DNA of 64,000 nucleotides, from positions 367 through 64,366 of the forward strand of contig CANEDJ010000002.1 in assembly GCA_947426265.1 (NCBI GenBank). Reading direction: 5' to 3'. The DNA comes from an uncultured Mycoplasmatota bacterium. GTDB lineage: Bacteria; Bacillota_I; Bacilli_A; RF39; UBA660. How positions within the stretch are numbered: the first letter of the stretch is position 1; each line of letters starts with the position of its first letter. This document shows, piece by piece, positions 20,095 to 37,428 of this stretch. The notes under the pieces are model-generated. The model was not told the DNA's origin and searched no databases. It was given only the letters and a program-made list of their open reading frames with translations. A program made the translations under genes and the position numbers.

Positions 20095-20278
20095 ATTATC
20101 ACCTAATATACATTATACCGCATTTTAATAAATATGAAAACGGATGAATACGTTTTTTGTTTATAGTTTACAATTGGAAATTATAGAAATAACAAAAAAA
20201 AGAAGATAAGGTGGTAATATGTGTCAAATTTTGCTATAATTGTAATAGAACAAAGAAAATAATGTAGGTGAACAGTTA

Positions 20279-23200
20279 ATGAGAAAACAATTATCAATGA
20301 AAAACTTTATTACAGGAATTATTCCATATTTTGTTTTAGCAATCCTTGGATTTGTACGAGTGGATTTTTTTGTAGATAATCTTGGGGATGAAATTTATGC
20401 AATTAATCAATTGTTTTTTCAAATATTTGCTTATATTTCTTTGGTAGAAGCAGGTATTGGACCTCTTATTACGCAACAATATTATAAATTCTTTGCAGAT
20501 CAAGACCATAAATCTATTAGTGGACTTTATACAACCTCAAAGAAAATGTTACAAAAAATTTCAATTGCTATTTTAATAATTGGGTTTATCGTTTCTTTAT
20601 TTTTAAAATTTTTGACAAATAATAACTTAGCGCTTGGATATATGCAAATTGTATTTATGATATTCTTATTTCGCAGCATTTTGGAATACCTAATGCTTTC
20701 TCCGCGATTGGTATTACAAGCAGATCAAAGAATTTATAAAATTAATGTGTTATTGAATGCTTATAAAGTAATAGAAATTATTGTAGAAATTACACTGTTA
20801 CAATGTGGAATTGATTATTTAGTTATTTTGTTATCTTCTATTGTAGTAAGATTCTTGTCTTATTACTATACTAATCGTAAAATCTTTAAAGAGTATCCTT
20901 GGTTAACTGTGGTAAATAAAAATGAAGTGGTAAAATTAAAAAATTCAACTAGTGTTTTATGGCATAAATTGGCAGATGCCATTTATAATAATACGGATAT
21001 TTTATTAATATCTGCTAAGTTGGAACCAATAAGTGTTGTTATTTATTCTGCTTATAAGTATATTGTAAAATTTATTGTAGATGGAGTTTATATCTTATCA
21101 AATGCTTTGACAGCAAGTTTTGGAAATGTAGTTTATAAAAGCAAGAAAGCGGACAAACATCTGATATTTGAAGAAATGAATATGGCCTTTTTAGCGGCAG
21201 CTAGCTTTTTTACGATTACTGTTTATGTATTAAGTCATACTTTTGTGTCTTTGTGGTTAGGCCCAAATAAGTTAATGGATAATTTAGCTTTTATTTTTAT
21301 GATAATAGTATTATTCAACGATATTGCTAGAAGACCATTTCTTATTTGTAGGGATGCTAATGGATTGTTTAAAGAAACACAATTGATTACAATTGTAGAA
21401 TCCTTTTTAAATTTAATATTATCAATAGTACTAGTTTTTAAATATGGTGTAGTTGGAGTTTTATTTGCAACAGCTTTTTCAACACTTGCCACAAGTTTTT
21501 GGTTTTATCCACGTTATATTTATAAACAGGCATTTTATATGGATTCAAAGCAATACTTTCTCAAATACTTTACTTGTGTAATAATAACCATAATAGGATG
21601 TTTTGTTGGAAGACATTTGTTTGAAATTTTACCCTCTTCTGGTTATGTTAGTTGGATTTTCAGCGCTGTTGTTATTTGTCTATTAGCAATTGTTTTGATT
21701 GCTATAACATTTATAATATGTTTTAAAGATTTTCGCAGATTGTTATATAAAGCAAAATTATTGTTGGAGGAGATGAAAATAATGGAAAGATTGAAAAATA
21801 TGAAGAAGATGATGATTGATAAAGAAGTTCTTATAAAATTATTGATGTTCTTTTTAATGTTACAACCTGTTTTAGATATTTATATATTATTTGAACCTAC
21901 AGTTGTTTCATTTTTTCACTTTTCTCCAACGACAATTATAAGAATCCTTTTTGTTGGGCTATTGCTTTTAATGTTAGGATTTACATTAAAATATTCAAAA
22001 AAATATTTTTTGATGTTGGGATATATATTTTTGGTTGTTTTATATGCAATATTTCATCATTTGAATGCGATGCAGTTTCAATCTAATGTGCCAGGGAATT
22101 TTGGTTATTCTTTTACGTCAGAAATTTTCTATATTATTCGAATGTTATTGCCACTTATTATGATTATAATATCCTATCATGTAAAATTTAGTGAGAAGCG
22201 AATGCAAACAGTAATTCAAACTTTAATACTTCTTATTTCTGGAAGCATTGTTATAACTAATCTTTTTTCTATATCTTTAGCTTCTTATACAAAAACATCA
22301 ATAGCAGCGAATATATTTACATGGTTTACTGATCAATATGAAAAATATAATTATTTACAATTGGCATCAAGAGGTTTTTTTGTGTCAGCAAATCGTATTT
22401 CAGCATTAGAACTTCTATTGACACCAATTTGGTTATTTTTCTTTATTAAAAAACCTACCAAAAAAAACATAGTTATTACTATTATACACATTATTGCAAT
22501 GCTTATGCTTGGAACAAAAGTTGCAACTTTGGGAATAATTTTGTTATTAATCTTATCGTTTTTAATATATTGCTATTGTTGCTTTATACAAAAAGAATTT
22601 GAATTTTCTAAAAAAATTTTATATTCATTTATTATGTTTGTAATCATTTGGAGCTCTATATTTCCGCTATCGCCTGCAATGAATCGAAATAATATTGATA
22701 ATAATAGAGAACAAAATTCTGAAACGATGGTAACTTGCAAAAAAATGAAGCAAATACCGTTAGGTCAGATAAAATATGAAGATCCTTTAATTGAATATGA
22801 AACTGATGATCTTACGAAATGCTCATTAAATAAGGATTTAGAAAAGCAAAAATTGGAATTAGTAGAAAGAAATTTAGCATTTCTTTCAAAAGAAGAAGAA
22901 AAAGTAGAATATTTAAAATCTTTTATAGAAGTAGAATATGAGAATTTCAATATAAAGACGGAGTTTCTTTTTGAATCTTATCCGTATCAATATAACCCTT
23001 ATTTTTGGTATGATATTATGAAAGAACCTTTAATGGTGCGAACTAATTTTAGAATTTTAGAGGAACGAATGCTTTCCAATATAAAAAAACAAAATAATAA
23101 TTACTATGATAATTATTTTGGCATTACATTTACTAGAATGAGTAATATTTTTGATTTAGAAAGAGATTTCATTTCACACTATTATACATTAGGATGGTGC

Positions 23201-24619
23201 GGGTTAATTTTATTGTTATTCCCTTATTTGATAATTGTGGTGTTTGGAATTATTTTAATGTTATTTCAATTTAAAGAAAAAATTAATTTTTATAATATAA
23301 TGCTATTATTTTCGATTGGAATTACATTATTTGCTGCATATTATAGTGGAAATATAATGGATGGTTTAATTGTTACCTTGATTTTAGGATTTATTATTGG
23401 ACAATTTGTACAATGTGTATATAGGAGGAATAAAACAATGAATGAAAAGAAAAAAATATCCATTATTATGCCAACTTATAATGATGCAAAAAGTATTTGT
23501 GAAACACTAGATTCTGTCATAGAACAAACTTATCAAAATTGGGAATTAATTATTGTTGATGATGGTTCAAAGGATGAAACAAGATCAGTGATAAAAAGTT
23601 ATAAAAAAGCCCACAAAAATGATAATAGAATTCAATATGTATACCAAAAAAACACAGATCAATTAAAGGCTATTATACATGGAATGGATTACATAAGCGG
23701 AGATTATATTTATATTCTTCATTCTGATGACTTGCTAGCAACAAAAATGGTATTTGAAAGGGCAGTTCAATACTTAGAAAAGTATACAGAAGTTGATGCT
23801 ATAATAGGAGATTTGATTGTAATTGATGAAAATAGTAAAATAACAGGAAGGCAAGAAGTATTATCATACTTAAAAAAAGAAAAAACTCCAGCAATTCAGC
23901 TACTTTGGCTTGGAAGAAATTTATATGTTGATTTTGCTTTTCATAGAAAAAAATTTTTTTTTGAAAATGTAAAAGAAAATTATTTAACTTGGAATACTCC
24001 TTTTTGGTTAAACACCTCTGATTCTTTATCTATGCTAAATGTAAAAAAAGTTGATTTTGAATTTATTAAATATAGGGTCCATAGTGGCAATTATATCAAT
24101 AATGATATTGGCAAATTAAATGTTATAAATGGAGAACTAAGAACGGTTACTCGTTTAATGAAATATTATGACATTCCAAATTATAAAAAACAATTTTATA
24201 TTTTTCGTATTTTCAATCGATTAAATTTTTTACAGATTTATAAGCCTCTATATAAAAAACGAGAATTTACAAATAAAGCAGAAGTTTTGGATTTTATAAT
24301 TCGAAAGAGATTTTCAAATGGATATAATGATAATTGTTTTTTAAAAAGTCTTGTAAGTTTTTATGAAAATTTTCATTCAAGAAAAATATATTTTAAAGAT
24401 ATTTATAATAATGAAATTATATATAAGGGAAATGAAATGAGGCAATTTAACAAAGAATTAATAGATAATAAATTACCAAATCTATATTTATCTATATTCA
24501 AAGAAATGCAAGTTGGCTTTGATGAGATTATAGTGAAGACTGAAGAGGAAAAAGAAAAAGCGATTAATTTAACAAAATTTTTATGTATTTATCCATTTGT
24601 AAAAGTTACGAAGAAGTAG
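20279..24619 (+). CDS. Tri-modular glycopolymer protein: Wzx-type polysaccharide flippase (aa 1-~490), Wzy/O-antigen-ligase-like polytopic module (aa ~499-1050), family-2 glycosyltransferase (aa ~1054-1446)
   Basis: Continuous 1446-codon frame in AT-rich DNA. The N-terminal module has a 12-14 TM MOP-flippase pattern. The middle module has many TM helices plus a ~190-aa hydrophilic loop. The C-terminus reads ISIIMPTYNDAKSICETLDSVIEQTYQNWELIIVDDGSKDET (GT2 DXD region). Internal RBS+ATG pairs sit at both junctions (GGAGGAG at 21766 then ATG 21773/21782; AGGAGG at 23423 then ATG 23438). Confidence 0.65.
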   Translation: MRKQLSMKNFITGIIPYFVLAILGFVRVDFFVDNLGDEIYAINQLFFQIFAYISLVEAGIGPLITQQYYKFFADQDHKSISGLYTTSKKMLQKISIAILIIGFIVSLFLKFLTNNNLALGYMQIVFMIFLFRSILEYLMLSPRLVLQADQRIYKINVLLNAYKVIEIIVEITLLQCGIDYLVILLSSIVVRFLSYYYTNRKIFKEYPWLTVVNKNEVVKLKNSTSVLWHKLADAIYNNTDILLISAKLEPISVVIYSAYKYIVKFIVDGVYILSNALTASFGNVVYKSKKADKHLIFEEMNMAFLAAASFFTITVYVLSHTFVSLWLGPNKLMDNLAFIFMIIVLFNDIARRPFLICRDANGLFKETQLITIVESFLNLILSIVLVFKYGVVGVLFATAFSTLATSFWFYPRYIYKQAFYMDSKQYFLKYFTCVIITIIGCFVGRHLFEILPSSGYVSWIFSAVVICLLAIVLIAITFIICFKDFRRLLYKAKLLLEEMKIMERLKNMKKMMIDKEVLIKLLMFFLMLQPVLDIYILFEPTVVSFFHFSPTTIIRILFVGLLLLMLGFTLKYSKKYFLMLGYIFLVVLYAIFHHLNAMQFQSNVPGNFGYSFTSEIFYIIRMLLPLIMIIISYHVKFSEKRMQTVIQTLILLISGSIVITNLFSISLASYTKTSIAANIFTWFTDQYEKYNYLQLASRGFFVSANRISALELLLTPIWLFFFIKKPTKKNIVITIIHIIAMLMLGTKVATLGIILLLILSFLIYCYCCFIQKEFEFSKKILYSFIMFVIIWSSIFPLSPAMNRNNIDNNREQNSETMVTCKKMKQIPLGQIKYEDPLIEYETDDLTKCSLNKDLEKQKLELVERNLAFLSKEEEKVEYLKSFIEVEYENFNIKTEFLFESYPYQYNPYFWYDIMKEPLMVRTNFRILEERMLSNIKKQNNNYYDNYFGITFTRMSNIFDLERDFISHYYTLGWCGLILLLFPYLIIVVFGIILMLFQFKEKINFYNIMLLFSIGITLFAAYYSGNIMDGLIVTLILGFIIGQFVQCVYRRNKTMNEKKKISIIMPTYNDAKSICETLDSVIEQTYQNWELIIVDDGSKDETRSVIKSYKKAHKNDNRIQYVYQKNTDQLKAIIHGMDYISGDYIYILHSDDLLATKMVFERAVQYLEKYTEVDAIIGDLIVIDENSKITGRQEVLSYLKKEKTPAIQLLWLGRNLYVDFAFHRKKFFFENVKENYLTWNTPFWLNTSDSLSMLNVKKVDFEFIKYRVHSGNYINNDIGKLNVINGELRTVTRLMKYYDIPNYKKQFYIFRIFNRLNFLQIYKPLYKKREFTNKAEVLDFIIRKRFSNGYNDNCFLKSLVSFYENFHSRKIYFKDIYNNEIIYKGNEMRQFNKELIDNKLPNLYLSIFKEMQVGFDEIIVKTEEEKEKAINLTKFLCIYPFVKVTKK

Positions 24620-24629
24620 GAGGAAAAAT

Positions 24630-25331
24630 ATGATACCAAAAAAAGTACATTTTATTTGGGTAGGTGGAAAAGAAAAACCGAAAGATATAGTGAAATGCAT
24701 GAAAACTTGGAAGAAACATTTGAAAGGTTATGAAATTGTTGAGTGGAATGAATCTAATTTTGATATTCATTCACATCCGTTTGCAGAAGCAGCCTATAAA
24801 GCAAAAAAATGGGCTTATGTAAGCGACTATATTAGGGCGTATGTGATTTATCATGAGGGAGGAATTTATGTTGATACTGATGTGTTGATCTTAGATAATT
24901 TTGATAAGTTCTTAATGCATAAAGCATTTGTAGGGTTTGAACGGCCAGAATTTCCTTTTACAGCTGTATTTGGTGCAGAAAAAGGTCATCCTTTTGTAAA
25001 AGATATGTTAGATTATTATGACTCTTTAGATAGTTATCAATTCGATTTTCAAAATAATAATACTATTTCTGTATCAGATATTTTAGTAGATAAGTATGGA
25101 TGTAGGAAAGATAACCAATATCAAGAATTAAAAGAGGGAATTATTGTTTATCCTGACACAGTTTTATGTAATCCATCAATTAATTCTGTTTCAATTCATG
25201 TTTTTAATGGTTCTTGGCTAGAAGAAAAAAAACCTTTTAAAAGAAAAATTAACAAATTTTTAAAATTAAAATTAACGAGTCAAAAACGATCAGCTTGGTA
25301 TCGAAAGAATATTCAAAAAATAAAAGATTAA
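24630..25331 (+). CDS. Glycosyltransferase, GT32-like (Gly_transf_sug DXD family)
   Basis: PKKVHFIWVGG and SDYIRAYVIYHEGGIYVDTDV motifs. Confidence 0.7.
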   Translation: MIPKKVHFIWVGGKEKPKDIVKCMKTWKKHLKGYEIVEWNESNFDIHSHPFAEAAYKAKKWAYVSDYIRAYVIYHEGGIYVDTDVLILDNFDKFLMHKAFVGFERPEFPFTAVFGAEKGHPFVKDMLDYYDSLDSYQFDFQNNNTISVSDILVDKYGCRKDNQYQELKEGIIVYPDTVLCNPSINSVSIHVFNGSWLEEKKPFKRKINKFLKLKLTSQKRSAWYRKNIQKIKD

Positions 25332-25363
25332 AACAACACTTGAAAATTTAGGAGAAAAATGAT

Positions 25364-26503
25364 ATGAAAAAAGTAGCAATTTTAGGGCTTCATTTAGGAT
25401 ATGGTGGAGTCGAGCAGTCAATTGTTAATTTAGCTAATATGCTTTGTGAAAAATATGAAGTAGAGCTTGTGATTACATATCAGGTAGTAGAAGAAGTACC
25501 TTATAAAATAAATCAAAAAGTAAAAATTACTTATCTTACTGATTTGAAACCTAATCGGGAAGAATTTAAAAAAGAATTAAAAGAAAGACATTTGATACAG
25601 GCTTTTAAAGAAGGATTAAAAAGCATTTTGATTTTACATAAAAGGATATCTGTTATGAAAAAGTATATAAAAAACAGTGATGCTGATATATTAATATCTA
25701 GTAGAGTTTTATATACAAAGCTAGTAAGTAAGTATGCAAAAAAAGGAGTTATTACCATAGCGCAAGAACATTGTCACCATAATAATAATCAAAAATATAT
25801 TAATAAAGTTAAAAGGGCTTGTCGAAACATAAACTACTTAATACCAGTTTCAAAAGAATTAACAAGTGACTATCAAAAAATGATTCAAAATGGGAAAACC
25901 GTCTGTTTATTTATTCCAAATTCGTTAGAATTTTGGCCAGAAAAAACCTCTAACTTAGATTGTAAAAATCTAATATCTGTTGGACGTATTTCCAAAGAAA
26001 AAGGATATCTAGATTTAATTGATGTATTTGAATTGATTCATCAAGTGAACCCAGATTGGAAGTTAAACATTATTGGTAATGGTGGAGAGATGTCAAAATT
26101 AAAAGAAAAAATAACAGAGAAAAAATTAGAGAAATATGTGATACTTCACGGCTTTCAAAATAAAGCTTATATTTATGAGCAACTATTACAATCTTCAATT
26201 TATGTGATGTGTTCCTATGAAGAATCATTTGGTATTGTTTTATTAGAAGCCGCATCGTTTGGTATACCACTGATTGCATATTCTAGTGCTCAAGGAGCTC
26301 ATGAAATTATCGAAAATAATGAAAATGGATATTTAATAGAAAATCGTGATAAAAATAAAATGGCAACCAAAGTTAATGAATTAATTGACAGTCAAGAACA
26401 GCGAATAAAATTGGGAACTTTTGCAAGAACAAGTGTAGAGCAATTTGCATTTGAAAATGTAAAAGAACAATGGCTTAAGTTCCTAGATAGTATGGAGGAG
26501 TAG
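25364..26503 (+). CDS. Glycosyltransferase family 4 (GT-B)
   Basis: EESFGIVLLEAASFGIPLIAYSS (E-x7-E) motif. Length 379 aa. Confidence 0.8.
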   Translation: MKKVAILGLHLGYGGVEQSIVNLANMLCEKYEVELVITYQVVEEVPYKINQKVKITYLTDLKPNREEFKKELKERHLIQAFKEGLKSILILHKRISVMKKYIKNSDADILISSRVLYTKLVSKYAKKGVITIAQEHCHHNNNQKYINKVKRACRNINYLIPVSKELTSDYQKMIQNGKTVCLFIPNSLEFWPEKTSNLDCKNLISVGRISKEKGYLDLIDVFELIHQVNPDWKLNIIGNGGEMSKLKEKITEKKLEKYVILHGFQNKAYIYEQLLQSSIYVMCSYEESFGIVLLEAASFGIPLIAYSSAQGAHEIIENNENGYLIENRDKNKMATKVNELIDSQEQRIKLGTFARTSVEQFAFENVKEQWLKFLDSMEE

Positions 26504-26504
26504 T

Positions 26505-27245
26505 ATGAAGAACTTTTTTGAAAGAATGTATAGTGCTTCCTATCAAGAGTTTGAAAAGGAATTAGAAAAAAATTTAAGGGAAAACCGAAAAATGTTTGTC
26601 GTAACAGCGAATCCAGAAACTTTTATGATTGGAACAAACAATCAAGAAGTAAGTCAAATTCTATTAGATAGAAAAGTAACAATTGTACCAGATGGAATCG
26701 GCATTGTGAAAGGCGCTAACATGCTGGGCTATAAAGTGAAAGAAAGAATTCCTGGAATTGAGATTGCTTGGAGTTTGTTAAAACTAGGAAATGAACAAAA
26801 AAAATCGATTTTTCTCTTAGGAGCCAGCGAAGAAGTAAAAGAAAAAATGATAGAAAAATTAAAAGCAGATTATCCAAATTTAAAAATTTTAGGAGCTATA
26901 AATGGCTATGGTAAAAACAAAGATAAAGATTTTGAACGAATAAAAAAAGAAAATCCAGATATCATTTTAGTAGCGCTAGGAATACCAGCTCAAGAAAAAT
27001 TAATTTATAAACATTTAGATGACTTTTCAAAAGGAATTTTTGTAGGTGTAGGAGGTTCTTTAGATGTAATTAGTGGAGCTAAAAAAAGAGCACCAAAAAT
27101 ATTTCAAAATTTGGGACTTGAATGGTTATATAGATTGGCAAAAGAACCAAAAAGAATTAAACGTTTTTATAATAGCAATGTGAAATTTATATTTGAAATA
27201 AAAAAATTGAAGAAAGGAAAAAATAATGAAATGGTTAAAAAGTAA
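26505..27245 (+). CDS. tagA: WecG/TagA/CpsF-family (GT26) N-acetylmannosaminyltransferase
   Basis: VTANPETFM...VPDGIGIV...LLGASEEV, characteristic of TagA. Confidence 0.8.
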   Translation: MKNFFERMYSASYQEFEKELEKNLRENRKMFVVTANPETFMIGTNNQEVSQILLDRKVTIVPDGIGIVKGANMLGYKVKERIPGIEIAWSLLKLGNEQKKSIFLLGASEEVKEKMIEKLKADYPNLKILGAINGYGKNKDKDFERIKKENPDIILVALGIPAQEKLIYKHLDDFSKGIFVGVGGSLDVISGAKKRAPKIFQNLGLEWLYRLAKEPKRIKRFYNSNVKFIFEIKKLKKGKNNEMVKK

Positions 27246-27446
27246 CTATTTAATATTGTGTCAGTTTCATATATTATTTTTTAGTATAGAATGAAACTTA
27301 TATTTTAATATTATTTACAGGAAGATTGACTGCTGCAAATTTTAGTACTGGAAGTGTCGCCAAGCTATTTTTTACGAACGATGACAACTCTTGCTATATG
27401 TGTTTTAGTAGCACTAGACAAGTTAATTACGAAGGAGGATTAAAAA

Positions 27447-28550
27447 ATGATAAAAGTAATGACTATATTTGGAACAAGGCCAGAGGCTATTAAAATGGCC
27501 CCTTTGGTAAAAGAATTGAAAGCTAGAAAAGAAATAGAGACCATTGTATGTGTAACCGCTCAACACAGAGAAATGTTAGACCAAGTGTTAGAAGCATTTG
27601 ATATAAAACCTGATTATGATTTAAACATTATGAAGCAAGGACAGACTTTAGGAGAGGTTACAACAAGAGCGCTAACTGGGTTAGAAGATGTTATCAAAAA
27701 GGAAAAGCCAGATATAGTGTTAGTACATGGAGATACAACAACAACGTTTTCAGGAGCCTTAGCTGCTTTCTATAATAGTGTTGCAATTGGTCATGTAGAG
27801 GCAGGGCTTAGGACTTGGGATAAATATTCGCCCTATCCTGAAGAAATGAACCGTCAAATGGTAGGGTGTATGGCAGATATGCATTTTTCACCAACAGAAG
27901 TAAGTGCAAGGAATTTACTCAATGAAGGAAAGAAAAAAGAGAATATCTATATTACTGGAAATACAGCCATTGATGCTATGAAAACAACTGTCAAAGATGA
28001 TTATCATCATGAAGTATTTGATTGGATTGGCAGTAGTCGAATGGTTTTATTAACTGCACATAGAAGAGAAAACTTAGGAGAACCGATGTACCATATTTTT
28101 AAAGCTGTTAAAAGAATTGTTGATGAATTTGAAGACATTAAAGTTGTATATCCAATTCATATGAATCCAAAAGTTCGGGAAGTGGCTAATGAGGTTTTAA
28201 AAGACACAAACAGAGTAAAATTGATAGAGCCATTAGAAGTAGTTGATTTCCATAATTTTATTAATAAATCTTATATTATTTTAACAGATAGCGGAGGAAT
28301 ACAAGAAGAAGCACCTTCTTTAGGAAAACCTGTGTTGGTACTTAGGGATACTACAGAAAGACCAGAAGGGATTAATGCAGGAACTTTAAAATTGGTTGGA
28401 ACTGATGAAGATATTATTTATAATGAAACTAAAACTTTACTTATTGATAAAGATGTATATGAAAAAATGAGTAAAGCTAGCAATCCTTATGGAGATGGGG
28501 AAGCTAGTAGAAGAATAGCAGATGCGATTATAGAAAAATTTTCTAAATAG
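27447..28550 (+). CDS. mnaA: UDP-N-acetylglucosamine 2-epimerase (non-hydrolysing)
   Basis: MIKVMTIFGTRPEAIKMAPLV N-terminus and HVEAGLRT motif. Confidence 0.9.
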   Translation: MIKVMTIFGTRPEAIKMAPLVKELKARKEIETIVCVTAQHREMLDQVLEAFDIKPDYDLNIMKQGQTLGEVTTRALTGLEDVIKKEKPDIVLVHGDTTTTFSGALAAFYNSVAIGHVEAGLRTWDKYSPYPEEMNRQMVGCMADMHFSPTEVSARNLLNEGKKKENIYITGNTAIDAMKTTVKDDYHHEVFDWIGSSRMVLLTAHRRENLGEPMYHIFKAVKRIVDEFEDIKVVYPIHMNPKVREVANEVLKDTNRVKLIEPLEVVDFHNFINKSYIILTDSGGIQEEAPSLGKPVLVLRDTTERPEGINAGTLKLVGTDEDIIYNETKTLLIDKDVYEKMSKASNPYGDGEASRRIADAIIEKFSK

Positions 28551-28570
28551 ATAGCAGTAAGGAGTGTATT

Positions 28571-29419
28571 ATGAAAGATTATATATCTTTAATGAGGCCA
28601 AAGCATTATTTGAAAAATACCTTGATATTTTTTCCATTAATATTTTCAGCTCTCATTTTTGAAAAACAAAATTTTCTGTCTTGTTTGTTTGGGTTTATTG
28701 CCTTTTCTTTATCTGCATCTACTATTTATATTGTTAATGATATACGAGATAAAGAAAAAGATAGAAATCATGAAAAGAAAAAAAATAGGCCGATTGCTTC
28801 TGGAAAAGTGAGCATACCAAGTGCGATTATATTGGCTTGTATCCTATTTCTTATATCGTATATCTTTCATTTCTTTGCAGTTAAAGAAATAGCTCATTCG
28901 AGCTATATATATATACTAGTATATATAATTATTAATCTTGCCTATAGCTTTGGACTTAAAAATGTACCACTAGTAGATGTAACAATTTTAGTAATTGGAT
29001 TTTTACTGCGTGTACTATATGGTGCAGCAATCATAGGCATTGAAGTATCAAATTGGCTTTATTTAACTATTATTTCTATTTCGTTTTATTTGGGTTTGGG
29101 TAAAAGAAGAAATGAGATAAAGAAATCAGGAACTAGATCAAGAAAAGTGTTAGATTATTATAATGAAGAATTTTTAGACAAAAACATGCATATGTGTATG
29201 TCACTTGCTATTGTATTTTATTCCTTATGGTGCGCTAGTAGTCCAAATCATTTAATAGTTTGGACTGTTCCACTAATAATATTATTGTGTATGCGTTATA
29301 GCATGGATGTTGAAGGTGATAATTTTGGAGATCCTATTGACGTGATATATGCAGACAAATTTTTAGGTCTATTAGCTTTAATTGTTGGAATAATACTATT
29401 TGGAATTATTTATATGTAG
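28571..29419 (+). CDS. UbiA-superfamily polyprenyl-phosphate phosphoribosyltransferase homolog (DPPR-synthase subfamily)
   Basis: Seven to eight TM helices. Motif NDIRDKEKDRNHEKKKNRPIASG, compared from memory with mycobacterial Rv3806c (NDxxDxxxDRxHPxKxxRPIAxG). RBS AAGGAGTG. Confidence 0.65.
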   Translation: MKDYISLMRPKHYLKNTLIFFPLIFSALIFEKQNFLSCLFGFIAFSLSASTIYIVNDIRDKEKDRNHEKKKNRPIASGKVSIPSAIILACILFLISYIFHFFAVKEIAHSSYIYILVYIIINLAYSFGLKNVPLVDVTILVIGFLLRVLYGAAIIGIEVSNWLYLTIISISFYLGLGKRRNEIKKSGTRSRKVLDYYNEEFLDKNMHMCMSLAIVFYSLWCASSPNHLIVWTVPLIILLCMRYSMDVEGDNFGDPIDVIYADKFLGLLALIVGIILFGIIYM

Positions 29420-29431
29420 GGAGGAAATTGT

Positions 29432-31012
29432 ATGAAACAGAAAATAAAATTCTTTTTTAAAAATAAAAATTTAATAGTTCATTTATTTCTTATATTTTCT
29501 ACATTAATTTTTATTTGTGCAAGTATTTCTCCAATAAGGACATTATTCAAAAATAATTTTATGTATACAATCATCTCATTAATCGTATTTTGCGTTTTAA
29601 TATACTGTATCTGGAAATTTTTAAAAAGAGCAGAAGTAGAAAAGAAATGGATTGAATATCTAATTGTGGGCATCCTTATTTTATTGGGCTTGTTATTGCG
29701 AATAGGAACTAATAATATAATCAAGACACAACCAATTTCAGATTTTAATACGCCACATGATGTATATAAACAATTACATAGTGAAAATAATGATATTTTC
29801 GCACCAAAGAGTGATTATCAAAGTTTAAGTTTTTATCAGCGATATTATTCATCCTATCCAGCATGGTTTCCTTATATGAAAGTAATTAGTTTCATATATG
29901 ATACATTTGGAGAAAATCTTAAATATATTAAGCTAATGAATTGGGGGCTTTATATAATCACGTCGCTTTTGCTGTATTGGATTGGGAAAAAAATAAAATC
30001 AAAAAAAGCAGGGATTATTGCATTATTGTTGTTTTCCTGCTTTCCTTCCTTAATTGTTTATACAAACATTACAACACCAGATCATTTTACAATTTTGTTG
30101 TTTACTTGTTTTATTGCAACTTGGGTAAAATTATTAGAATATAGAAAGAAAAAAAGCAAAAAAATTATTTTATGGTGTTTTTTAAATGTTTTATCAATTA
30201 TAGGAATTAATTTATTTAAACCGCTTTCAATTTTAGGACTATTAGTGTTTATTTGCACTGAGTTGTTATGTATTTTATTTCCTATTTTACGCGAAAGAGA
30301 AAGTAGAAAACAATATTTTAAACAATCATTTGCTTTTGCTGTTGGCTTTATAATAGCATGCTATTTGGGTATCAGCATATCAAGTCATATATTAAATGTA
30401 CAAGTAGAAAAAACAATTCACACTGAGGTAGTAGATTCAACTCCACTTTATTTACTTTGGGCTTATTCTTTAGATGAAAAAGGGAATTATAACCCAGATA
30501 TTGCTACTCAAACTTATACCGAATTATTAATAAAATACAATGGGAATCAGAAAGAGGTAATGAAAGAACTTGCAATACTGGCGAAAACACAAATTGTAAA
30601 AAATATTTCAAAATTACCAAAGATTTTTTATCAAAAGTTTAAAGTTGTATTTTCAAGCGAAGAGGATATCTTTTCATTTGCAAATTATAGTAATAATGAA
30701 ATATATGAACAAAAATTAAGAAAAACAATACTAAAGTATTATATATATATTTCAAATACATTTATGGGGGTTTTATTTCTACTTTGTACTTTTTCTCTTA
30801 TAAAAGAAATAAAGGATAAAGAGAAAAATCCAATCATCATCGTAATTACGTTAACAATTATAGGCTATTTTTTAATTTTATTATTAGGTGGAGTTCAAGG
30901 GCGATACAAAATGCTTATGGCTTCATTATTGTGTATTTTAGCTGGAACTATTTTTAGCGAAAACAGAAAGGAAGATGAGTATGTTAATAAGTGTTGTCAT
31001 TCCTTGCTATAA
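29432..31012 (+). CDS. Polytopic GT-C-fold glycosyltransferase (ArnT/PMT/Aft-like, GT39/83-type)
   Basis: 526 aa, at least 12 TM helices, periplasmic loops, aromatic-rich first loop. Call rests on architecture only. Confidence 0.5.
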   Translation: MKQKIKFFFKNKNLIVHLFLIFSTLIFICASISPIRTLFKNNFMYTIISLIVFCVLIYCIWKFLKRAEVEKKWIEYLIVGILILLGLLLRIGTNNIIKTQPISDFNTPHDVYKQLHSENNDIFAPKSDYQSLSFYQRYYSSYPAWFPYMKVISFIYDTFGENLKYIKLMNWGLYIITSLLLYWIGKKIKSKKAGIIALLLFSCFPSLIVYTNITTPDHFTILLFTCFIATWVKLLEYRKKKSKKIILWCFLNVLSIIGINLFKPLSILGLLVFICTELLCILFPILRERESRKQYFKQSFAFAVGFIIACYLGISISSHILNVQVEKTIHTEVVDSTPLYLLWAYSLDEKGNYNPDIATQTYTELLIKYNGNQKEVMKELAILAKTQIVKNISKLPKIFYQKFKVVFSSEEDIFSFANYSNNEIYEQKLRKTILKYYIYISNTFMGVLFLLCTFSLIKEIKDKEKNPIIIVITLTIIGYFLILLLGGVQGRYKMLMASLLCILAGTIFSENRKEDEYVNKCCHSLL

Positions 31013-31985
31013 TGTAGAGAAGTTCATTGATAAATGCTTAAATTCGATATTAAAGCAAACATATAAAAATTTAGAGATTATATTATATGATGACTGTTCA
31101 GAAGATAAGACAAATGAAATATTGAAAACTTTGCAAAAAAAAGATGGTAGGATTAAAGTATACTTTGGAAAAGAAAATGCAGGACCAGGAGGAGCGAAAA
31201 ATGAGGGTTTAAAAAGAGCAACGGGTGATTATGTTTTATTTATTGATAGTGATGATTATGTTGGAAAAACTTATATTGAGGAAATGGTGAATGTTGCTTT
31301 GAAAAACCCTGCTTTAGATATAATAACTACAAATTTTACCAAAATAGATCAGAATGGAAAAATTGCCTATATAAGAGACTATAAGAATAGTGAAGTTGCC
31401 TTATGGCAAAAAATAACTACATGGGGAAAATTATTCAAAAGAGAGTGGTTAACTAGCAATACTTTGTCATTACCATATGGAAAGGTATTGGAAGATGTTT
31501 TATTCCATGGAGCTTGTATGATTGTCAATCCTAAATCAGAGCTTTGTCATAATCAAGAATATTATTATGTTTTTAATAGTCATTCGATCTCACATACAAC
31601 ATTAAATCAGTTTAAACCTGGAGCTTTAAAGCAGGGACAAGAATACTTAATTTCACTAAAAAACATAGCAAAAACAGAAGAAAAAGAAGAACTTCTTAGC
31701 TATTTTGCCTTTCAATATATTTGTTGGCATCTTTTAAAAAGTGGTAATAATGTTGGAAAAGAAGCAATGGAAAAAGAATATGATCAAGCATTTTCTTTCT
31801 TAGAAATAGAATTTCCTAAGTTCAAAAAAAATAGATATATTTCTATATTTCATCCTCAAAAAGAAAGACGAATTATATTTTTTGTAATGTACAATACAAA
31901 AATATTATATAAATTGCATTTAGCAAAATTCTTTTTTAAAATTTATAGTAGGGTTAATTTGGAGAAATTATGGCCAAATTTATAA
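30981..31985 (+). CDS. Glycosyltransferase family 2
   Basis: VVIPCYNVEKFIDKCLNSILKQTYKNLEIILYDDCSEDKT and FIDSDD motifs. RBS AAGGAAG 6 nt upstream of the ATG at 30981. Confidence 0.8.
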   Translation: MLISVVIPCYNVEKFIDKCLNSILKQTYKNLEIILYDDCSEDKTNEILKTLQKKDGRIKVYFGKENAGPGGAKNEGLKRATGDYVLFIDSDDYVGKTYIEEMVNVALKNPALDIITTNFTKIDQNGKIAYIRDYKNSEVALWQKITTWGKLFKREWLTSNTLSLPYGKVLEDVLFHGACMIVNPKSELCHNQEYYYVFNSHSISHTTLNQFKPGALKQGQEYLISLKNIAKTEEKEELLSYFAFQYICWHLLKSGNNVGKEAMEKEYDQAFSFLEIEFPKFKKNRYISIFHPQKERRIIFFVMYNTKILYKLHLAKFFFKIYSRVNLEKLWPNL

Positions 31986-32398
31986 CCCCAAAAGTAAAGG
32001 AATTAATTCGTTTTGTTTTTGTAGGTGGGGTAATGACTGTTATTAACTTTGCTTTACTCGCATTTTTTAAGGAATTTATAGGTATGAATTATATGATAGC
32101 AAATGTAGTTTCCTATATTATTGCTGTTATATTATCATATTTTATAAATGTTATCTTTACATTCAAACAACAAGTGACAAAGACAAAAGAAGAATGGAGT
32201 AAATTAGTAAAATATTGTATTATGAAATTAATTATATTAGGAATGGATAGTGCATGCTTGTATATTATGGTGAGTAAAATTGAAATGAATATATATATTG
32301 GTAAATTAATCTTAACAGTCGTTTTTACATTTGCTTCATTTGGAATTAGTAAAATTATTGTATTGGAAGGAAAAAATTATGAAAATAATCGCTTATGA
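31970..32398 (+). CDS. GtrA-family membrane protein (polyprenyl-phosphate-sugar handling)
   Basis: 142 aa, 4 TM. N-terminus IRFVFVGGVMTVINFALLAFF is typical of GtrA. Confidence 0.7.
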   Translation: MAKFITPKVKELIRFVFVGGVMTVINFALLAFFKEFIGMNYMIANVVSYIIAVILSYFINVIFTFKQQVTKTKEEWSKLVKYCIMKLIILGMDSACLYIMVSKIEMNIYIGKLILTVVFTFASFGISKIIVLEGKNYENNRL

Positions 32399-33356
32399 TT
32401 TTGATGGAACTATTTATGATGGAGATTCTTCAGCTGATTTTTATAAATTTTGTTTTAAAAAGAAAAAAAGTATTTGCAAATATTGTATAAAACAACTGTG
32501 GTTTCTTGGACTTTATGTTTTAGGGCTAAAAACAAAAACAGAAATGAAAGAAGTGTTATTTTCTTTCTTAAAAGAGTTCAAAGACCAAGAAAAATTAGTA
32601 GAAGAATTTTGGGATAAACATTATGTAAAGATGAAGAAATGGTATTTAGAAAAAAGTCATTCAAATGATATTATTATTTCTGCTTCTCCAGAGTTTCTTT
32701 TAGAAGTTCCTTGTAAAAGATTAAAAGTAAAAGATTTAATTGCCACAAAAGTAGATATGAAAACAGGAGAATTTTTAAGTGAAAATTGCCATGGAGAAGA
32801 AAAAGTAAAAAGAATTAAAAAAAAATATCCAAAAGCAGAAGTAGAAGAAATGTATACAGATAGTCATGTAGACTTACCAATGATTGAATTAGCAAAAAAA
32901 GGATTCAAAGTGAAAAAAAATGTAGTCATGCCTTATTATGACTATAAAGAAACAAAATTAGAAAAAATAAAGCATACATTTTTAACTCCTAAATTTATAC
33001 GATTTGTATTTGTAGGGTGTTTAAATACCTTTAATGGAGTATTGTTTTCATTTTTATATTCATTATTTATAGAGAATGCTACTATAGCATTTATGGTAGG
33101 ATATATGACAAGTTTAATATTTTCTTACTTATTAAATAGTTTTATTACATTTCATGATAAAAAAATTACTATTTTTAAATTTATTAAATTTTGTATTTCT
33201 TACATACCTAACTTTATCATTCAACTCATTTGTGTATATATTGTTATTGATTTATTACATTGGTATAAATTGATAGCCTATATTATTGCAGCAGTTATAG
33301 GAATACCAATTACTTATTTAGCACTATTATTATTTCCGTTTAAAGAAAAGAAATAA
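32379..33356 (+). CDS. HAD-superfamily phosphatase fused to a C-terminal GtrA-like membrane domain
   Basis: HAD motif I MKIIAYDFDGTIYDG. C-terminal 120 aa repeat the GtrA pattern (FIRFVFVGCLNTFNGVLFSFL...). RBS GGAAGGA before the ATG at 32379. Overlaps the upstream gtrA-like gene by 20 nt. Confidence 0.6.
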   Translation: MKIIAYDFDGTIYDGDSSADFYKFCFKKKKSICKYCIKQLWFLGLYVLGLKTKTEMKEVLFSFLKEFKDQEKLVEEFWDKHYVKMKKWYLEKSHSNDIIISASPEFLLEVPCKRLKVKDLIATKVDMKTGEFLSENCHGEEKVKRIKKKYPKAEVEEMYTDSHVDLPMIELAKKGFKVKKNVVMPYYDYKETKLEKIKHTFLTPKFIRFVFVGCLNTFNGVLFSFLYSLFIENATIAFMVGYMTSLIFSYLLNSFITFHDKKITIFKFIKFCISYIPNFIIQLICVYIVIDLLHWYKLIAYIIAAVIGIPITYLALLLFPFKEKK

Positions 33357-33394
33357 ATATTAAAATAAGCATATAATATATTGATTTTATCAAT

Positions 33395-33423
33395 TTGACA
33401 TTTTATTTTAACTATGATAGAAT
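33395..33423 (+). promoter_or_regulatory. Consensus sigma-A promoter driving the structured RNA
   Basis: TTGACA, 17 nt, TAGAAT. Confidence 0.6.
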
Positions 33424-33429
33424 GTTGAA

Positions 33430-34035
33430 TTGTAAATTGAAATGGCACATTATTCTAGTCAATTTCGTTTATTATGAAGGTGGCCCTAAAAAGTCACTAA
33501 AGAGCATATCTGTGAAACTTCTGGTGCTTGCTTCTTACGCCCAGTTTGGGGTGAGTGCTGGGAGGTATGGATGTTTAGGCAACTGTAATGGCATACAGAA
33601 CAATCGACCCACCATCTTGGAGACCTAACCTTGTTATTTCCCTATACACGAAAGTTGATGGAGAAGTGACGACTTAGGATTAAACCTACTATGTGATGAT
33701 AAGTTACGAGTAGTGTAGCTTGTCCTGAGTGAGTATTTGGGGATTATTGAACGGCTTTTATTTGATTGGCCAACCAAATAAAAGAATTGCAATATGAAAC
33801 AATACTTGCAAAAAGGAACTAATAATAAACAGAGTTGTCGAGGAAATCTCCTAGAGTGTCTATTTATATAGGATTGCAGTGCGTACTCAGTGGCAATCAA
33901 GTCATATATTCGGTGACGATATATTTACTTCTATAATGGGGAACCCCTCGTCTGGTAACGGAAGAGTTTGAAGTAAGGGAAATCCTACTTGACCTTAAGA
34001 CGTAAAGTTTACTATATAAATAGCCATTTTTTTGT
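33430..34035 (+). ncRNA. Large (~600 nt) structured ncRNA; candidate OLE-like (ornate large extremophilic) RNA
   Basis: GC content is clearly above the flanks. Six-frame ORFs here are short and on both strands. Own perfect promoter. Immediately upstream of a 4-TM ~21-kDa membrane protein, matching the reported OLE-oapA arrangement in anaerobic/extremophilic Firmicutes. Confidence 0.45.
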
Positions 34036-34055
34036 ATATTTTTAAGAGGTGTATA

Positions 34056-34637
34056 ATGGGAAAATATATTGATGAATTAAATAAAAATAAGAAACTAAAA
34101 AAAGAAAAAAAATTAGTTGATTATAGGTGGATCTTGAAAATATCGATTATAGCTTTTACTTTATCTATTGTATTTTCGCTACTTTCAGAAACAGTTATGC
34201 CAAAGGTGAATCTTTGGATAGGAATTATTATATTAATTCTGTTTATTGGAATCGGAATTATGTTTGATATGGTAGGAGTAGCAGTAACAGCAGCAGCAGA
34301 AACCCCATTTCATTCTATGGCAGCAAGAAAAGTAAGAGGAGCTAAAGTAGCTGTAAAATTTAAAAAGAACGCCGCTCAAGTGTCTTCCTTTTGTAATGAT
34401 GTAATAGGAGATATTTGTGGCATTGTATCAGGATCGACAGGAGCTATTTTAGCAATCACGATTTCTTCTTCCTTGCGAGTTGATGCTCTATTAGTAAGTT
34501 TACTTGTAACTGCTTTGATAGCAGCCCTAACAATAGGAGGAAAAGCAATGGGAAAAGGTTTTGCTGTCAGTAAAAGTAATATCATTTTATATGAATTTTC
34601 TAAAATAGTATCATTATTTTATAATCCCAAAAAATAA
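34056..34637 (+). CDS. OapA-like small polytopic membrane protein (4 TM)
   Basis: RBS AAGAGGTG precedes the ATG at 34056 (MGKYIDEL...). Four hydrophobic helices. Position directly downstream of the large ncRNA. Confidence 0.45.
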   Translation: MGKYIDELNKNKKLKKEKKLVDYRWILKISIIAFTLSIVFSLLSETVMPKVNLWIGIIILILFIGIGIMFDMVGVAVTAAAETPFHSMAARKVRGAKVAVKFKKNAAQVSSFCNDVIGDICGIVSGSTGAILAITISSSLRVDALLVSLLVTALIAALTIGGKAMGKGFAVSKSNIILYEFSKIVSLFYNPKK

Positions 34638-36645: not shown

Positions 36646-37428
36646 ATGAAAACAATTTTAATAACAGGTGCAAGAAGCGGAATTATGCATCAAGTAATAG
36701 AACAATTACTAAATAAAGACTATCATATTTATGCATCTGTTCATACAGAAAAAGAGTTAGAGCGGATTCAAAAAAAGTACCAGGAGGAATTACATGTAAC
36801 TTGTTTAAAACTAGACATTAAAAATAAAAATGATTACAAACAATTGGATTTATTAGATATTGATATTTATATAGCAAATGCAGCAAATGGAATGGGTGGA
36901 AGTATTATGAACATGGATATAAATAGAGTTAGAGAAAACTATGAAACAAATGTGTTCGCAAATTTAGAACTTCTACAATATATTTTAAAAAAAATGATAG
37001 AAAGGAAAAAAGGGAAGATCATTTTGATGGCATCTCTAGCTGGAATTTTACCAGTACCTTTCTTAGGAAGCTATTGTTCCACAAAAGCAAGTCTTATTAA
37101 ATGGGCAGAATGTTTGAAACTAGAACTTTTAGAAACAAAACTTCCCATTACTGTTACTTTAATAGAACCTGGACTATACAGGACTGGTTTTAATCGAATT
37201 ATGTTAGAAAACAAATATCCTGAAGTGGAAATGGAAAGTTATTTTAATAAGATTATAGAATTGCTTCATATGCAAGATCAAATGTTATTGAGGTTTTCTA
37301 GAAAGAATTTAACATCAATTAGTAATAAAATATGTGAAGCAATTGACAGCAAAAAAACAAAATTTATTTATCGAGCTCCATTCATAGAAGTTGTAACAGC
37401 AAAATTATTTCAGTTGTTTTTCGAGTAG
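36646..37428 (+). CDS. SDR-family oxidoreductase
   Basis: TGARSGIM Rossmann motif and YCSTK catalytic motif. Confidence 0.75.
   Translation: MKTILITGARSGIMHQVIEQLLNKDYHIYASVHTEKELERIQKKYQEELHVTCLKLDIKNKNDYKQLDLLDIDIYIANAANGMGGSIMNMDINRVRENYETNVFANLELLQYILKKMIERKKGKIILMASLAGILPVPFLGSYCSTKASLIKWAECLKLELLETKLPITVTLIEPGLYRTGFNRIMLENKYPEVEMESYFNKIIELLHMQDQMLLRFSRKNLTSISNKICEAIDSKKTKFIYRAPFIEVVTAKLFQLFFE

Follow-up and report, generated by a model that had tools for sequence, protein, structure and literature searches.

A predicted Gram-positive module for adding lipid-linked pentofuranose to a wall polysaccharide, with a HAD-GtrA phosphatase fusion and an ArnT-like glycosyltransferase

Lipid-linked arabinofuranose is supplied in mycobacteria by the decaprenyl-phosphate-arabinose pathway, which comprises Rv3806c, the PAP2-family protein Rv3807c, the DprE1/DprE2 pair, Rv3789 and the Aft/Emb arabinosyltransferases. 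A second kind of system was described in Citrobacter youngae, where ORF15, a HAD 'PRP' domain fused to an Rv3806c-like synthase, makes polyprenyl-P-ribofuranose from phosphoribosyl pyrophosphate (PRPP) (Kelly et al., PNAS 2024, PMC11127046). In this O1 system a small transporter (ORF14) is proposed to flip the donor, and ORF12, a glycosyltransferase of the GT-C fold (family GT136), adds alpha-ribofuranose to the O antigen after its polymerisation, with added epimerases giving other pentofuranoses (PMC11127046). The same authors already flagged Gram-positive candidates, one case with a separate PRP and some with GtrA/Rv3789-type 'SMR family' transporters instead of ORF14 (PMC11127046). The DNA analysed here is a window of 64,000 nucleotides from an uncultured Mycoplasmatota bacterium (assembly GCA_947426265.1, contig CANEDJ010000002.1, positions 367 to 64,366), which carries at 28571-33356 five adjacent genes encoding a UbiA-family protein, a polytopic GT-C-fold protein, a GT2 glycosyltransferase, a GtrA protein and a HAD phosphatase fused to a second GtrA domain. 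Our preferred reading, which we consider probable, is that together they make up a three-component system of Gram-positive type, by which a pentofuranose (D-ribofuranose being the likeliest) is added to a wall polysaccharide once this has been exported. The original prediction for this locus, made from the letters and their open reading frames (ORFs), had regarded such a pathway as essentially uncharacterised; this part must be dropped, as three-component systems working with undecaprenyl-P-ribofuranose have been proved biochemically (Kelly et al. 2024, PMC11127046).

The likeness to the Citrobacter system extends to the whole logic of the pathway: PRPP and polyprenyl phosphate would be joined by an Rv3806c-like UbiA protein, followed by a putative phosphatase of the HAD superfamily, flipping, and transfer by a GT-C onto the finished glycan, with epimerases as an optional addition. 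The differences concern the wiring. The window synthase is unfused, and it is the HAD-IB phosphatase that carries a fused GtrA domain; for transport, the candidates belong to the GtrA family and not to the ORF14 type; and the likely acceptor is a Gram-positive wall polymer instead of a lipopolysaccharide O antigen. With the mycobacterial pathway the locus shares a full-length Rv3806c homologue, a GtrA-family partner like Rv3789 and a GT-C predicted to act at the outer face. On the other hand, the window has no DprE1/DprE2, none of the five genes has a PAP2 Pfam match (a HAD-IB protein is present instead), and the system probably adds a side chain where mycobacteria polymerise arabinan. Altogether, the concept of the pathway is already published, and what is new here is a differently wired Gram-positive version with a HAD-GtrA phosphatase and an ArnT-like GT-C; a search of the literature accessible to us found no description of HAD-GtrA fusions or of a Firmicute version of the module.

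The first gene (28571-29419, + strand) encodes a 282-aa protein that matches Pfam UbiA at E 3e-21 and contains NDIRDKEKDRNHEKKKNRPIASG, the motif from which the original prediction had started and which, like the five ORFs, lies where it was claimed. The protein was proposed to be a decaprenylphosphoryl-5-phosphoribose synthase (DPPRS) and not a quinone prenyltransferase, and the profile searches bear this out: it scores 199, 181 and 158 bits on the NCBIfam DPPRS models and 168 bits on the HAD-UbiA fusion model NF006088, versus at most 56 bits on the models for UbiA, haem O synthase, digeranylgeranylglyceryl phosphate (DGGGP) synthase and chlorophyll synthase. Moreover, its sequence matches in the PDB at E<0.01 are the Rv3806c entries 8j8j/8j8k alone (E 4.6e-35, residues 5-271), and close relatives are named 'decaprenyl-phosphate phosphoribosyltransferase' by NCBI. 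Across 11 Firmicute relatives the residues K15, Y53, N56, D57, D60, D64, N122, F144 and K178-R-R-x-E182 are invariant, and they include both the N-D-x-x-D-x-x-x-D motif after the second transmembrane (TM) segment (N56, D57, D60, D64) and the K-R-x-x-E motif of loop IV (K178-R-R-N-E182). The former corresponds to N247, D248, D251 and D255 of ORF15 (PMC11127046). In Rv3806c, Asn73 and Asp77 are ligands of Mg and ribose, Lys28 and Tyr70 bind the 5'-phosphate of PRPP, and Lys28, Tyr70, Gln135 and Tyr157 are the residues that touch its ribose or 5'-phosphate (PMC10994848). When aligned to Rv3806c (8j8j), Asn73, Asp77, Lys28 and Tyr70 fall on N56, D60, K15 and Y53, and just two PRPP contacts are substituted, both conservatively and both invariantly within the Firmicute family (Gln135 to N122, Tyr157 to F144). 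By homology, then, the 282-aa protein is an Rv3806c-type polyprenyl-phosphate 5-phosphoribosyltransferase, and the predicted formation of polyprenyl-P-ribose-5-P from PRPP and polyprenyl phosphate is well supported by the same comparison. When each species was represented by a single genome, no fewer than 514 relatives of this synthase were retrieved, the nearest in an uncultured Bacilli metagenome-assembled genome (MAG) at 69% identity; the locus counts given below use the best 80, and single loci are cited by our L numbers.

The last gene of the module encodes the fusion protein of 325 aa (32379-33356, + strand). Gene calls on identical metagenome contigs start it at ATG 32379, not at TTG 32331 (341 aa) as first assumed, so that its first 20 nt are shared, in a different frame, with the end of the GtrA gene before it. 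Residues 1 to about 190 form the HAD domain (Pfam PF12710, 68.6 bits) and residues of about 204-318 the GtrA domain (GtrA_DPMS_TM, 56.6 bits). The former is placed in the HAD-IB group by the NCBIfam model TIGR01488 (52 bits, above its cut-off of 45) and also matches the model of PgpC at E 5.7e-08. PgpC is a lipid head-group phosphatase. All four HAD motifs are intact, with D7-F-D9-G-T11, S101-A-S103, K142 and D161/D165 invariant in 40 relatives. In the AlphaFold2 model (predicted local distance difference test, pLDDT, 93.3), residues 1-190 fold into a Rossmann core capped by helices, after which come a short helix and four TM helices; Foldseek relates its HAD part to 3fvv, SerB and PSP phosphatases and its C-terminal part to the dolichyl-P-mannose synthase 5mlz, while a PDB search with the sequence of this protein, as with that of the GT-C, gave nothing useful. 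The in-frame fusion stands as originally described, but it is not 'unique': of the 120 proteins most similar to the HAD domain, 89 share the HAD+GtrA architecture and the remaining 31 are stand-alone HADs of about 190 aa. The proposal that the HAD takes the place of Rv3807c also agrees with gene linkage and motifs, and we regard the protein as a predicted membrane-tethered polyprenyl-P-ribose-5-P 5'-phosphatase, possibly also part of a flippase. Its logic would recall that of PgsA and PgpC, where a phosphorylated head group is transferred and then trimmed by a membrane-tethered HAD-IB phosphatase; the anchor here is, however, a GtrA domain, the partner a PRPP-dependent UbiA protein and the lipid presumably polyprenyl phosphate.

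The second gene (29432-31012, + strand) encodes a polytopic protein of 526 aa, the predicted extracytoplasmic pentofuranosyltransferase. Its one Pfam match, to PMT_2, is sub-threshold (25.1 bits against a cut-off of 26.1), so that the assignment to GT-C comes from a structural model; homologues of the protein bear PMT_2 or PMT domains. A word-indexed homologue search retrieved 9 matches only, and the family size was taken from an exhaustive profile search, which gave 352 representatives at E<1e-30. The AlphaFold2 model, built from a 9-sequence input (pLDDT 84.5, predicted template modelling score, pTM, 0.87), is nearly all helical and has no separate beta-rich domain. In the comparison of this model with known structures the figures listed were 17.6 for ALG12, 17.2 for STT3B, 16.8 for AglB, 16.5 for Pmt4, 14.4 for AftB, 12.4 for AftD and 11.0 for AftA, and Foldseek agrees. 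Judged from the model, the protein is thus a GT-C nearer to ArnT/PMT than to the mycobacterial arabinosyltransferases AftB, AftD, AftA and EmbA; the GT-C fold had been correctly foreseen, whereas the expected closeness to Aft/Emb gives way to ArnT as the closest relative. From ArnT itself (GT83, the undecaprenyl-P-L-Ara4N transferase) the protein differs in sequence (11% identity), in having two extra N-terminal helices, in the donor, and in the acceptor, which is lipid A for ArnT and would be a wall glycan here. Catalytic aspartates of GT-C enzymes face outwards. In the window protein the motif PISDF, placed just after the third helix, contains the invariant Asp D104, and it should be outward-facing like them, since a Lys/Arg-rich loop precedes this helix; such a topology is predicted from the sequence. 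Citrobacter ORF12 has been described with an EpsG-type TM domain by CDD (Table S1) and a C-terminal carbohydrate-binding module (PMC11127046), a description that sets it apart from the ArnT/PMT_2-like window protein, in which neither a carbohydrate-binding module nor, among its Pfam matches, EpsG was found.

Between the GT-C and fusion genes lie those for a soluble or peripheral Leloir GT2 of 334 aa (30981-31985, alternative start 30975, + strand; Pfam Glycos_transf_2, E 2.5e-40) and for a GtrA-family protein of 142 aa (31970-32398, + strand). The GT2 has no TM segment. Its best matches in the PDB are GalT1 (105.6 bits), TarS (76 bits), the chondroitin synthase (75 bits) and TarP (55 bits), with 3bcv and heparosan synthase within the same range of 105-55 bits, versus 23-26 bits for the structures of dolichyl-phosphate mannose synthase (DPMS), 6yv7 and ArnC. 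On NCBIfam, TuaG comes first at 107 bits and PRK10073 is also among the best, with ArnC at 33 bits. As judged by these relatives, it is not a polyprenyl-P-sugar synthase and, unlike GtrB, ArnC or DPMS, resembles glycan-building GT2s, which agrees with the original prediction, against which a GT2 of GtrB/Ppm1 type would have told. Homologues of at least 50% identity are restricted to loci with a homologous GT-C (L009, L022, L026 and also L091), a co-occurrence which suggests that both enzymes work on the same glycan. The stand-alone GtrA protein, with four TM segments and 83.4 bits on GtrA_DPMS_TM, fits its description as an Rv3789 analog; it is 32% identical to the GtrA domain of the fusion, and by analogy the two GtrA-domain proteins are candidate transporters, or flippase subunits, for the lipid-linked sugar.

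The association of these functions recurs in related loci, whose labels are almost all of gut or environmental Bacilli and Clostridia, with a few MAGs otherwise labelled. In 40 of the 80 loci the UbiA gene has a HAD homologue no more than 10 kb away, mostly as the immediate next gene; 27 of these HADs stand alone, 9 carry a GtrA domain, 2 are joined to GT-C-like proteins (L042, L045) and 1 belongs to another fusion (L010). Moreover, large polytopic ORFs (400 aa or longer, with 8 or more TM segments) were counted in 78 loci: the UbiA gene has one as its direct neighbour in 46 and one at most two genes away in 58. These large polytopic neighbours span many families (PMT_2, DUF6080, GtrII, DUF6056, DUF6020 and others), as expected of GT-Cs that are specific for their acceptors. 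Four loci (L018, L034, L040, L046) contain three genes only, for a large polytopic GT-C candidate, the UbiA protein and a HAD-GtrA fusion, and such three-gene loci would be complete systems. A GT-C found independently and 37% identical to that of the window occurs in the order GT-C, UbiA, GT2, GtrA, HAD, that is, the same five-gene set in a different order. In cultured bacteria, plasmid pF27D of Lactococcus cremoris F.2.7 (L089, NZ_CP068515.2, 7575-10694), a mobilisable dairy exopolysaccharide (EPS) plasmid, has four adjacent genes, which encode a hypothetical membrane protein of 462 aa, DPPRS, a phosphatase of the HAD-IB group (48% identical to the window HAD) and GtrA, near flippase, O-antigen-ligase-like and LCP genes.

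Several further architectures were seen along these loci. The HAD is fused to GT-C-like proteins with 12-13 TM segments in L042:7720-9978 (753 aa) and L045:11883-13871 (663 aa), DUF6020 GT-C-like proteins carry a C-terminal GtrA domain in L036:6462-8603 (714 aa) and L042:11319-13256 (646 aa), and a protein of 778 aa joins a HAD, a TM region and a sulfatase-family domain (L010:12667-15000). Such fusions physically join the phosphatase, flippase and transferase steps. Plasmid pRspN324b of Rhizobium sp. N324 (L090, 5323-12588) encodes a HAD-UbiA fusion of 513 aa, GtrA, an FAD-binding oxidoreductase, a short-chain dehydrogenase/reductase (SDR) as well as two hypothetical proteins about 520-540 aa long, which together look like an ORF15-type arabinofuranose system that uses GtrA. 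Among phages, the example given by Kelly et al. (BK026208.1) was not among the matches in the phage collection, where an unverified faecal 'Bacteriophage sp.' scaffold alone matched (L097, MT837543.1, 898-5419). Its ORFs of 293 aa (UbiA-like), 199 aa (HAD-like), 118, 321 and 565 aa resemble the order UbiA, HAD, small TM protein, epimerase of L086 and L083, and it could be a phage-borne seroconversion module, its viral origin being unverified.

Regarding the sugar, the window was predicted to lack a DprE1/DprE2 pair, and this was confirmed: tblastn with DprE1 and DprE2 sequences, validated by NCBIfam at 795 and 427 bits, respectively, gave no match in the 64 kb nor within 10 kb in any of the 80 loci. 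Other modifying enzymes do accompany the synthase elsewhere. An NAD-dependent epimerase lies within the module in four loci (L086, L055, L083, L067), and in seven Ruminococcus-type loci (L037, L060, L066, L069, L074, L079, L081), where no HAD gene was seen, the two genes directly after the UbiA gene encode a 276-aa TIM-barrel protein similar to xylose isomerases and an oxidoreductase of the GFO/IDH/MocA type (384 aa), a pair that could perform an alternative modification of the lipid-linked ribose by oxidation plus isomerisation. When the NAD epimerase and the GFO/TIM-barrel pair were used as tblastn queries, no homologue was found in the 64-kb window. In the absence of an epimerase from the window, D-ribofuranose is the likeliest product sugar within the 64 kb of genome seen. 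The only SDR encoded nearby (36646-37428) was considered as DprE2 and rejected, as it matches generic SDR models and gives no tblastn match to DprE2; it is separated from the operon by the OLE (ornate large extremophilic) RNA and by genes for a Fur-family protein, rubrerythrin and a FolD-type dehydrogenase.

With these elements, the following course of events can be proposed. The UbiA synthase would produce polyprenyl-P-ribose-5-P, from which the HAD-IB domain, held at the membrane through GtrA, would strip the 5'-phosphate to leave polyprenyl-P-ribofuranose, the role performed elsewhere by Rv3807c or by the PRP domain of ORF15; we infer this step because of gene linkage, intact catalytic motifs and the GtrA fusion. 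The two GtrA-domain proteins may then bring this donor across to the outside of the membrane, as GtrA and Rv3789 suggest by analogy. There, the ArnT-like GT-C, using Asp104 in its first outward loop, would attach the ribofuranose to the polymer that the upstream genes build, as suggested by its fold, its topology and the linkage of its gene. The repeat unit of that polymer probably receives a further sugar from the soluble GT2 in the cytoplasm, and this could be the residue that serves as acceptor. The sugar is predicted to remain ribose, with no linked epimerase at hand.

Several observations weigh against this proposal. The synthase misses the curated equivalog cut-offs of NCBI, narrowly so for NF008978 (199.2 bits against 207; for NF008977, 180.6 against 234). 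Half of the 80 loci have no HAD gene in reach, many of them on contigs that end early. The phosphatase domain fused to the synthase in the ORF15-type protein of Rhizobium belongs to the same PF12710 family as the window HAD, and by sequence the likeness does not go significantly beyond that family: the N-terminal half of NF006088 does not match this HAD even at E values up to 10, the comparison with the ORF15-type PRP domain gives E 1.0 by BLASTP and E 0.021 at 2% probability by hhalign, and two HMMs of the HAD family fail to match the Rhizobium fusion. Furthermore, HAD-GtrA homologues occur in other company. One of 57% identity (L096:6001-8019) belongs to a glycopolymer cluster that lacks a UbiA gene, where its neighbours are a CDP-alcohol phosphotransferase gene and another GtrA gene; a second homologue, of 51% identity (L094:4835-7017), comes after ispD-ispF, and the 6 kb around it contain no UbiA gene. 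These neighbourhoods suggest that the HAD-GtrA family finishes several kinds of lipid-linked head group, and they weaken any claim of specificity for phosphoribose. To our knowledge, direct flippase activity has never been demonstrated for any GtrA protein. The host is an uncultured bacterium represented by metagenome contigs, in which the pathway is predicted from genes, and the glycopolymer of the neighbouring cluster is the likely acceptor as far as gene neighbourhood tells. Finally, the genome seen amounts to 64 kb, and an epimerase could be encoded elsewhere.

This last point leads to an alternative in which the pathway operates as proposed, except that enzymes encoded outside the 64 kb epimerise the lipid-linked ribose to an arabino-, xylo- or other pentofuranose ahead of its transfer. 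The NAD epimerases or GFO/IDH/MocA pairs next to the UbiA gene in some Firmicute loci, as well as the FAD oxidoreductase and SDR of the Rhizobium plasmid module, show companions of this kind. However, where epimerases are present they sit in the module, 1-3 genes from the UbiA gene, and none does so in this operon or window; with DprE1/DprE2 homologues within 10 kb in 0 of the 80 loci as well, we find an epimerised sugar unlikely. It may also be asked what the GT-C acts upon, since the acceptor is not readable from sequence. Pilin arabinosylation by TfpW and O-glycosylation of the PMT type are precedents for other acceptors, and a lipoteichoic acid or a surface protein would be in line with PMT_2 as the sole Pfam similarity of the GT-C and with a distant homologue of it that neighbours LtaS. 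Against them, the module is embedded in a cluster with TagA, MnaA and Wzx/Wzy-like functions, apparently as one operon, the Lactococcus module lies in an EPS cluster with an LCP ligase, and the GT2 varies together with the GT-C, as expected of a glycan-specific pair, so that a pentofuranose made as proposed and delivered to such acceptors appears quite unlikely.

A further alternative would take GT2, GtrA and GT-C as an ordinary hexose module of the GtrABC or CsbB-GtcA-YfhO type, with the UbiA and HAD-GtrA proteins serving another purpose. Those systems, and the lactococcal Csd one, do resemble the present locus in combining a GtrA protein with a GT-C that acts on an exported polymer from a polyprenyl-monophosphate donor, and the three genes are here adjacent and co-conserved; moreover, a distant relative of the GT-C (P0249, 23% identity) occurs in a locus of LtaS, GT-C, GT2 and GtrA without UbiA gene. 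In the hexose systems, however, the donor comes from a membrane-anchored GT2 that uses a UDP-sugar, instead of a PRPP-using UbiA protein and a phosphatase, and the window GT2 has neither a TM anchor nor the affinity to DPMS, 6yv7 and ArnC that it shows for glycan-acting GT2s. All GT-C homologues detected by tblastn in the 80 UbiA-centred loci (23-53% identity) adjoin the UbiA gene, and so does the 37%-identical GT-C that was found independently of them. A TM scan of the window proteins found no second GT-C able to use the product of the UbiA enzyme. An ordinary hexose module is on these grounds very improbable, and the addition of a pentofuranose to the wall polysaccharide stays as the reading we favour.

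Beyond this locus, the HAD-GtrA protein could be a 'finish-and-flip' device, where the phosphatase trims the terminal phosphate of a lipid-linked head group and the product is passed to the attached GtrA flippase domain, a conceivable but rather doubtful idea. The family might in that case mark an undescribed Firmicute route from phosphorylated precursors to polyprenyl-monophosphate-linked donors, because HAD-GtrA pairs with a CDP-alcohol phosphotransferase in L096 and the HAD is fused to GT-C in L042 and L045. If so, pentofuranose decorations, and perhaps others derived from polyols or sugar phosphates, would be common on the walls of gut commensals. The preferred reading of the module itself, if correct, would extend the PRPP-derived route to lipid-linked pentofuranose beyond mycobacteria and a few Gram-negative O antigens. 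A close relative of the synthase is encoded in no fewer than 514 genomes at species level, nearly all of them with labels of gut or environmental Firmicutes, and this variant hints at a way of keeping the phosphatase step at the membrane. We know of no furanose sugars in mammals, and for this reason furanose decorations of commensal walls could matter for phage receptors, immune recognition and serotype variation. Plasmid pF27D in L. cremoris offers a cultured and tractable test case, and the compact three-gene form (GT-C, synthase, HAD-GtrA) would be usable for glycoengineering.

The module closes a larger glycan cluster (20279-33356) in a window with a G+C content of about 28% and nearly all genes on the + strand. 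Upstream, polymer-building genes occupy 20279-28550 (+ strand; Pfam O-antigen_lig, GT2, Gly_transf_sug, Glycos_transf_1, Glyco_tran_WecG and Epimerase_2; NCBIfam TarA and WecB) in the order 1446-aa fusion, DXD glycosyltransferase, GT4, TagA and MnaA, followed by the five-gene module. Pfam and pairwise matches thus support the placement of the latter directly downstream of tagA-mnaA and a flippase/polymerase fusion. From 27447 to 33356 the intergenic spacing is at most 20 nt where genes do not overlap, with overlaps of 16-32 nt in the module, and a search of the + strand over 19900-34300 found no terminator-like site; the module and the TagA/MnaA/Wzx/Wzy-like polysaccharide cluster apparently share one operon. 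The same gene set is found, identical, on more than 20 metagenome contigs, and a strain variant (L002) has an additional 558-aa gene between those for the DXD glycosyltransferase and GT4.

The 1446-aa protein (20279-24619, + strand), with 21 predicted TM segments, has by Pfam an O-antigen-ligase/Wzy-like domain at 518-1042 and a GT2 domain at 1061-1210. Its residues 1-510 gave no sequence match in Pfam, NCBIfam or the PDB; they align with a lactococcal protein annotated as oligosaccharide flippase by the Prokaryotic Genome Annotation Pipeline (PGAP) at 24% identity over 501 aa (E 5e-27), and residues 1 to about 510 are likely a Wzx-like flippase recognisable from this one pairwise match alone. 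The sole large minus-strand gene near the cluster (18136-20094) encodes a protein of 652 aa with six PASTA repeats and three TM segments, in which Pfam detected no kinase or transpeptidase domain.

Directly downstream of the glycan operon lies the OLE RNA mentioned above, which is full length (33426-34043, + strand; Rfam RF01071, 398.9 bits, E 1.3e-115, model positions 1-616) and is preceded at 33395-33423 by a near-consensus extended -10 promoter, TTGACA-17-TAGAAT. Since this RNA occupies the region, an 88-aa ORF on the minus strand (33634-33900) is taken as spurious. The RNA is followed by an ORF at 34032/34056-34637 for a protein of about 193-201 aa which, without a confident Pfam match, has four TM segments and the position expected for an OLE-associated membrane protein.

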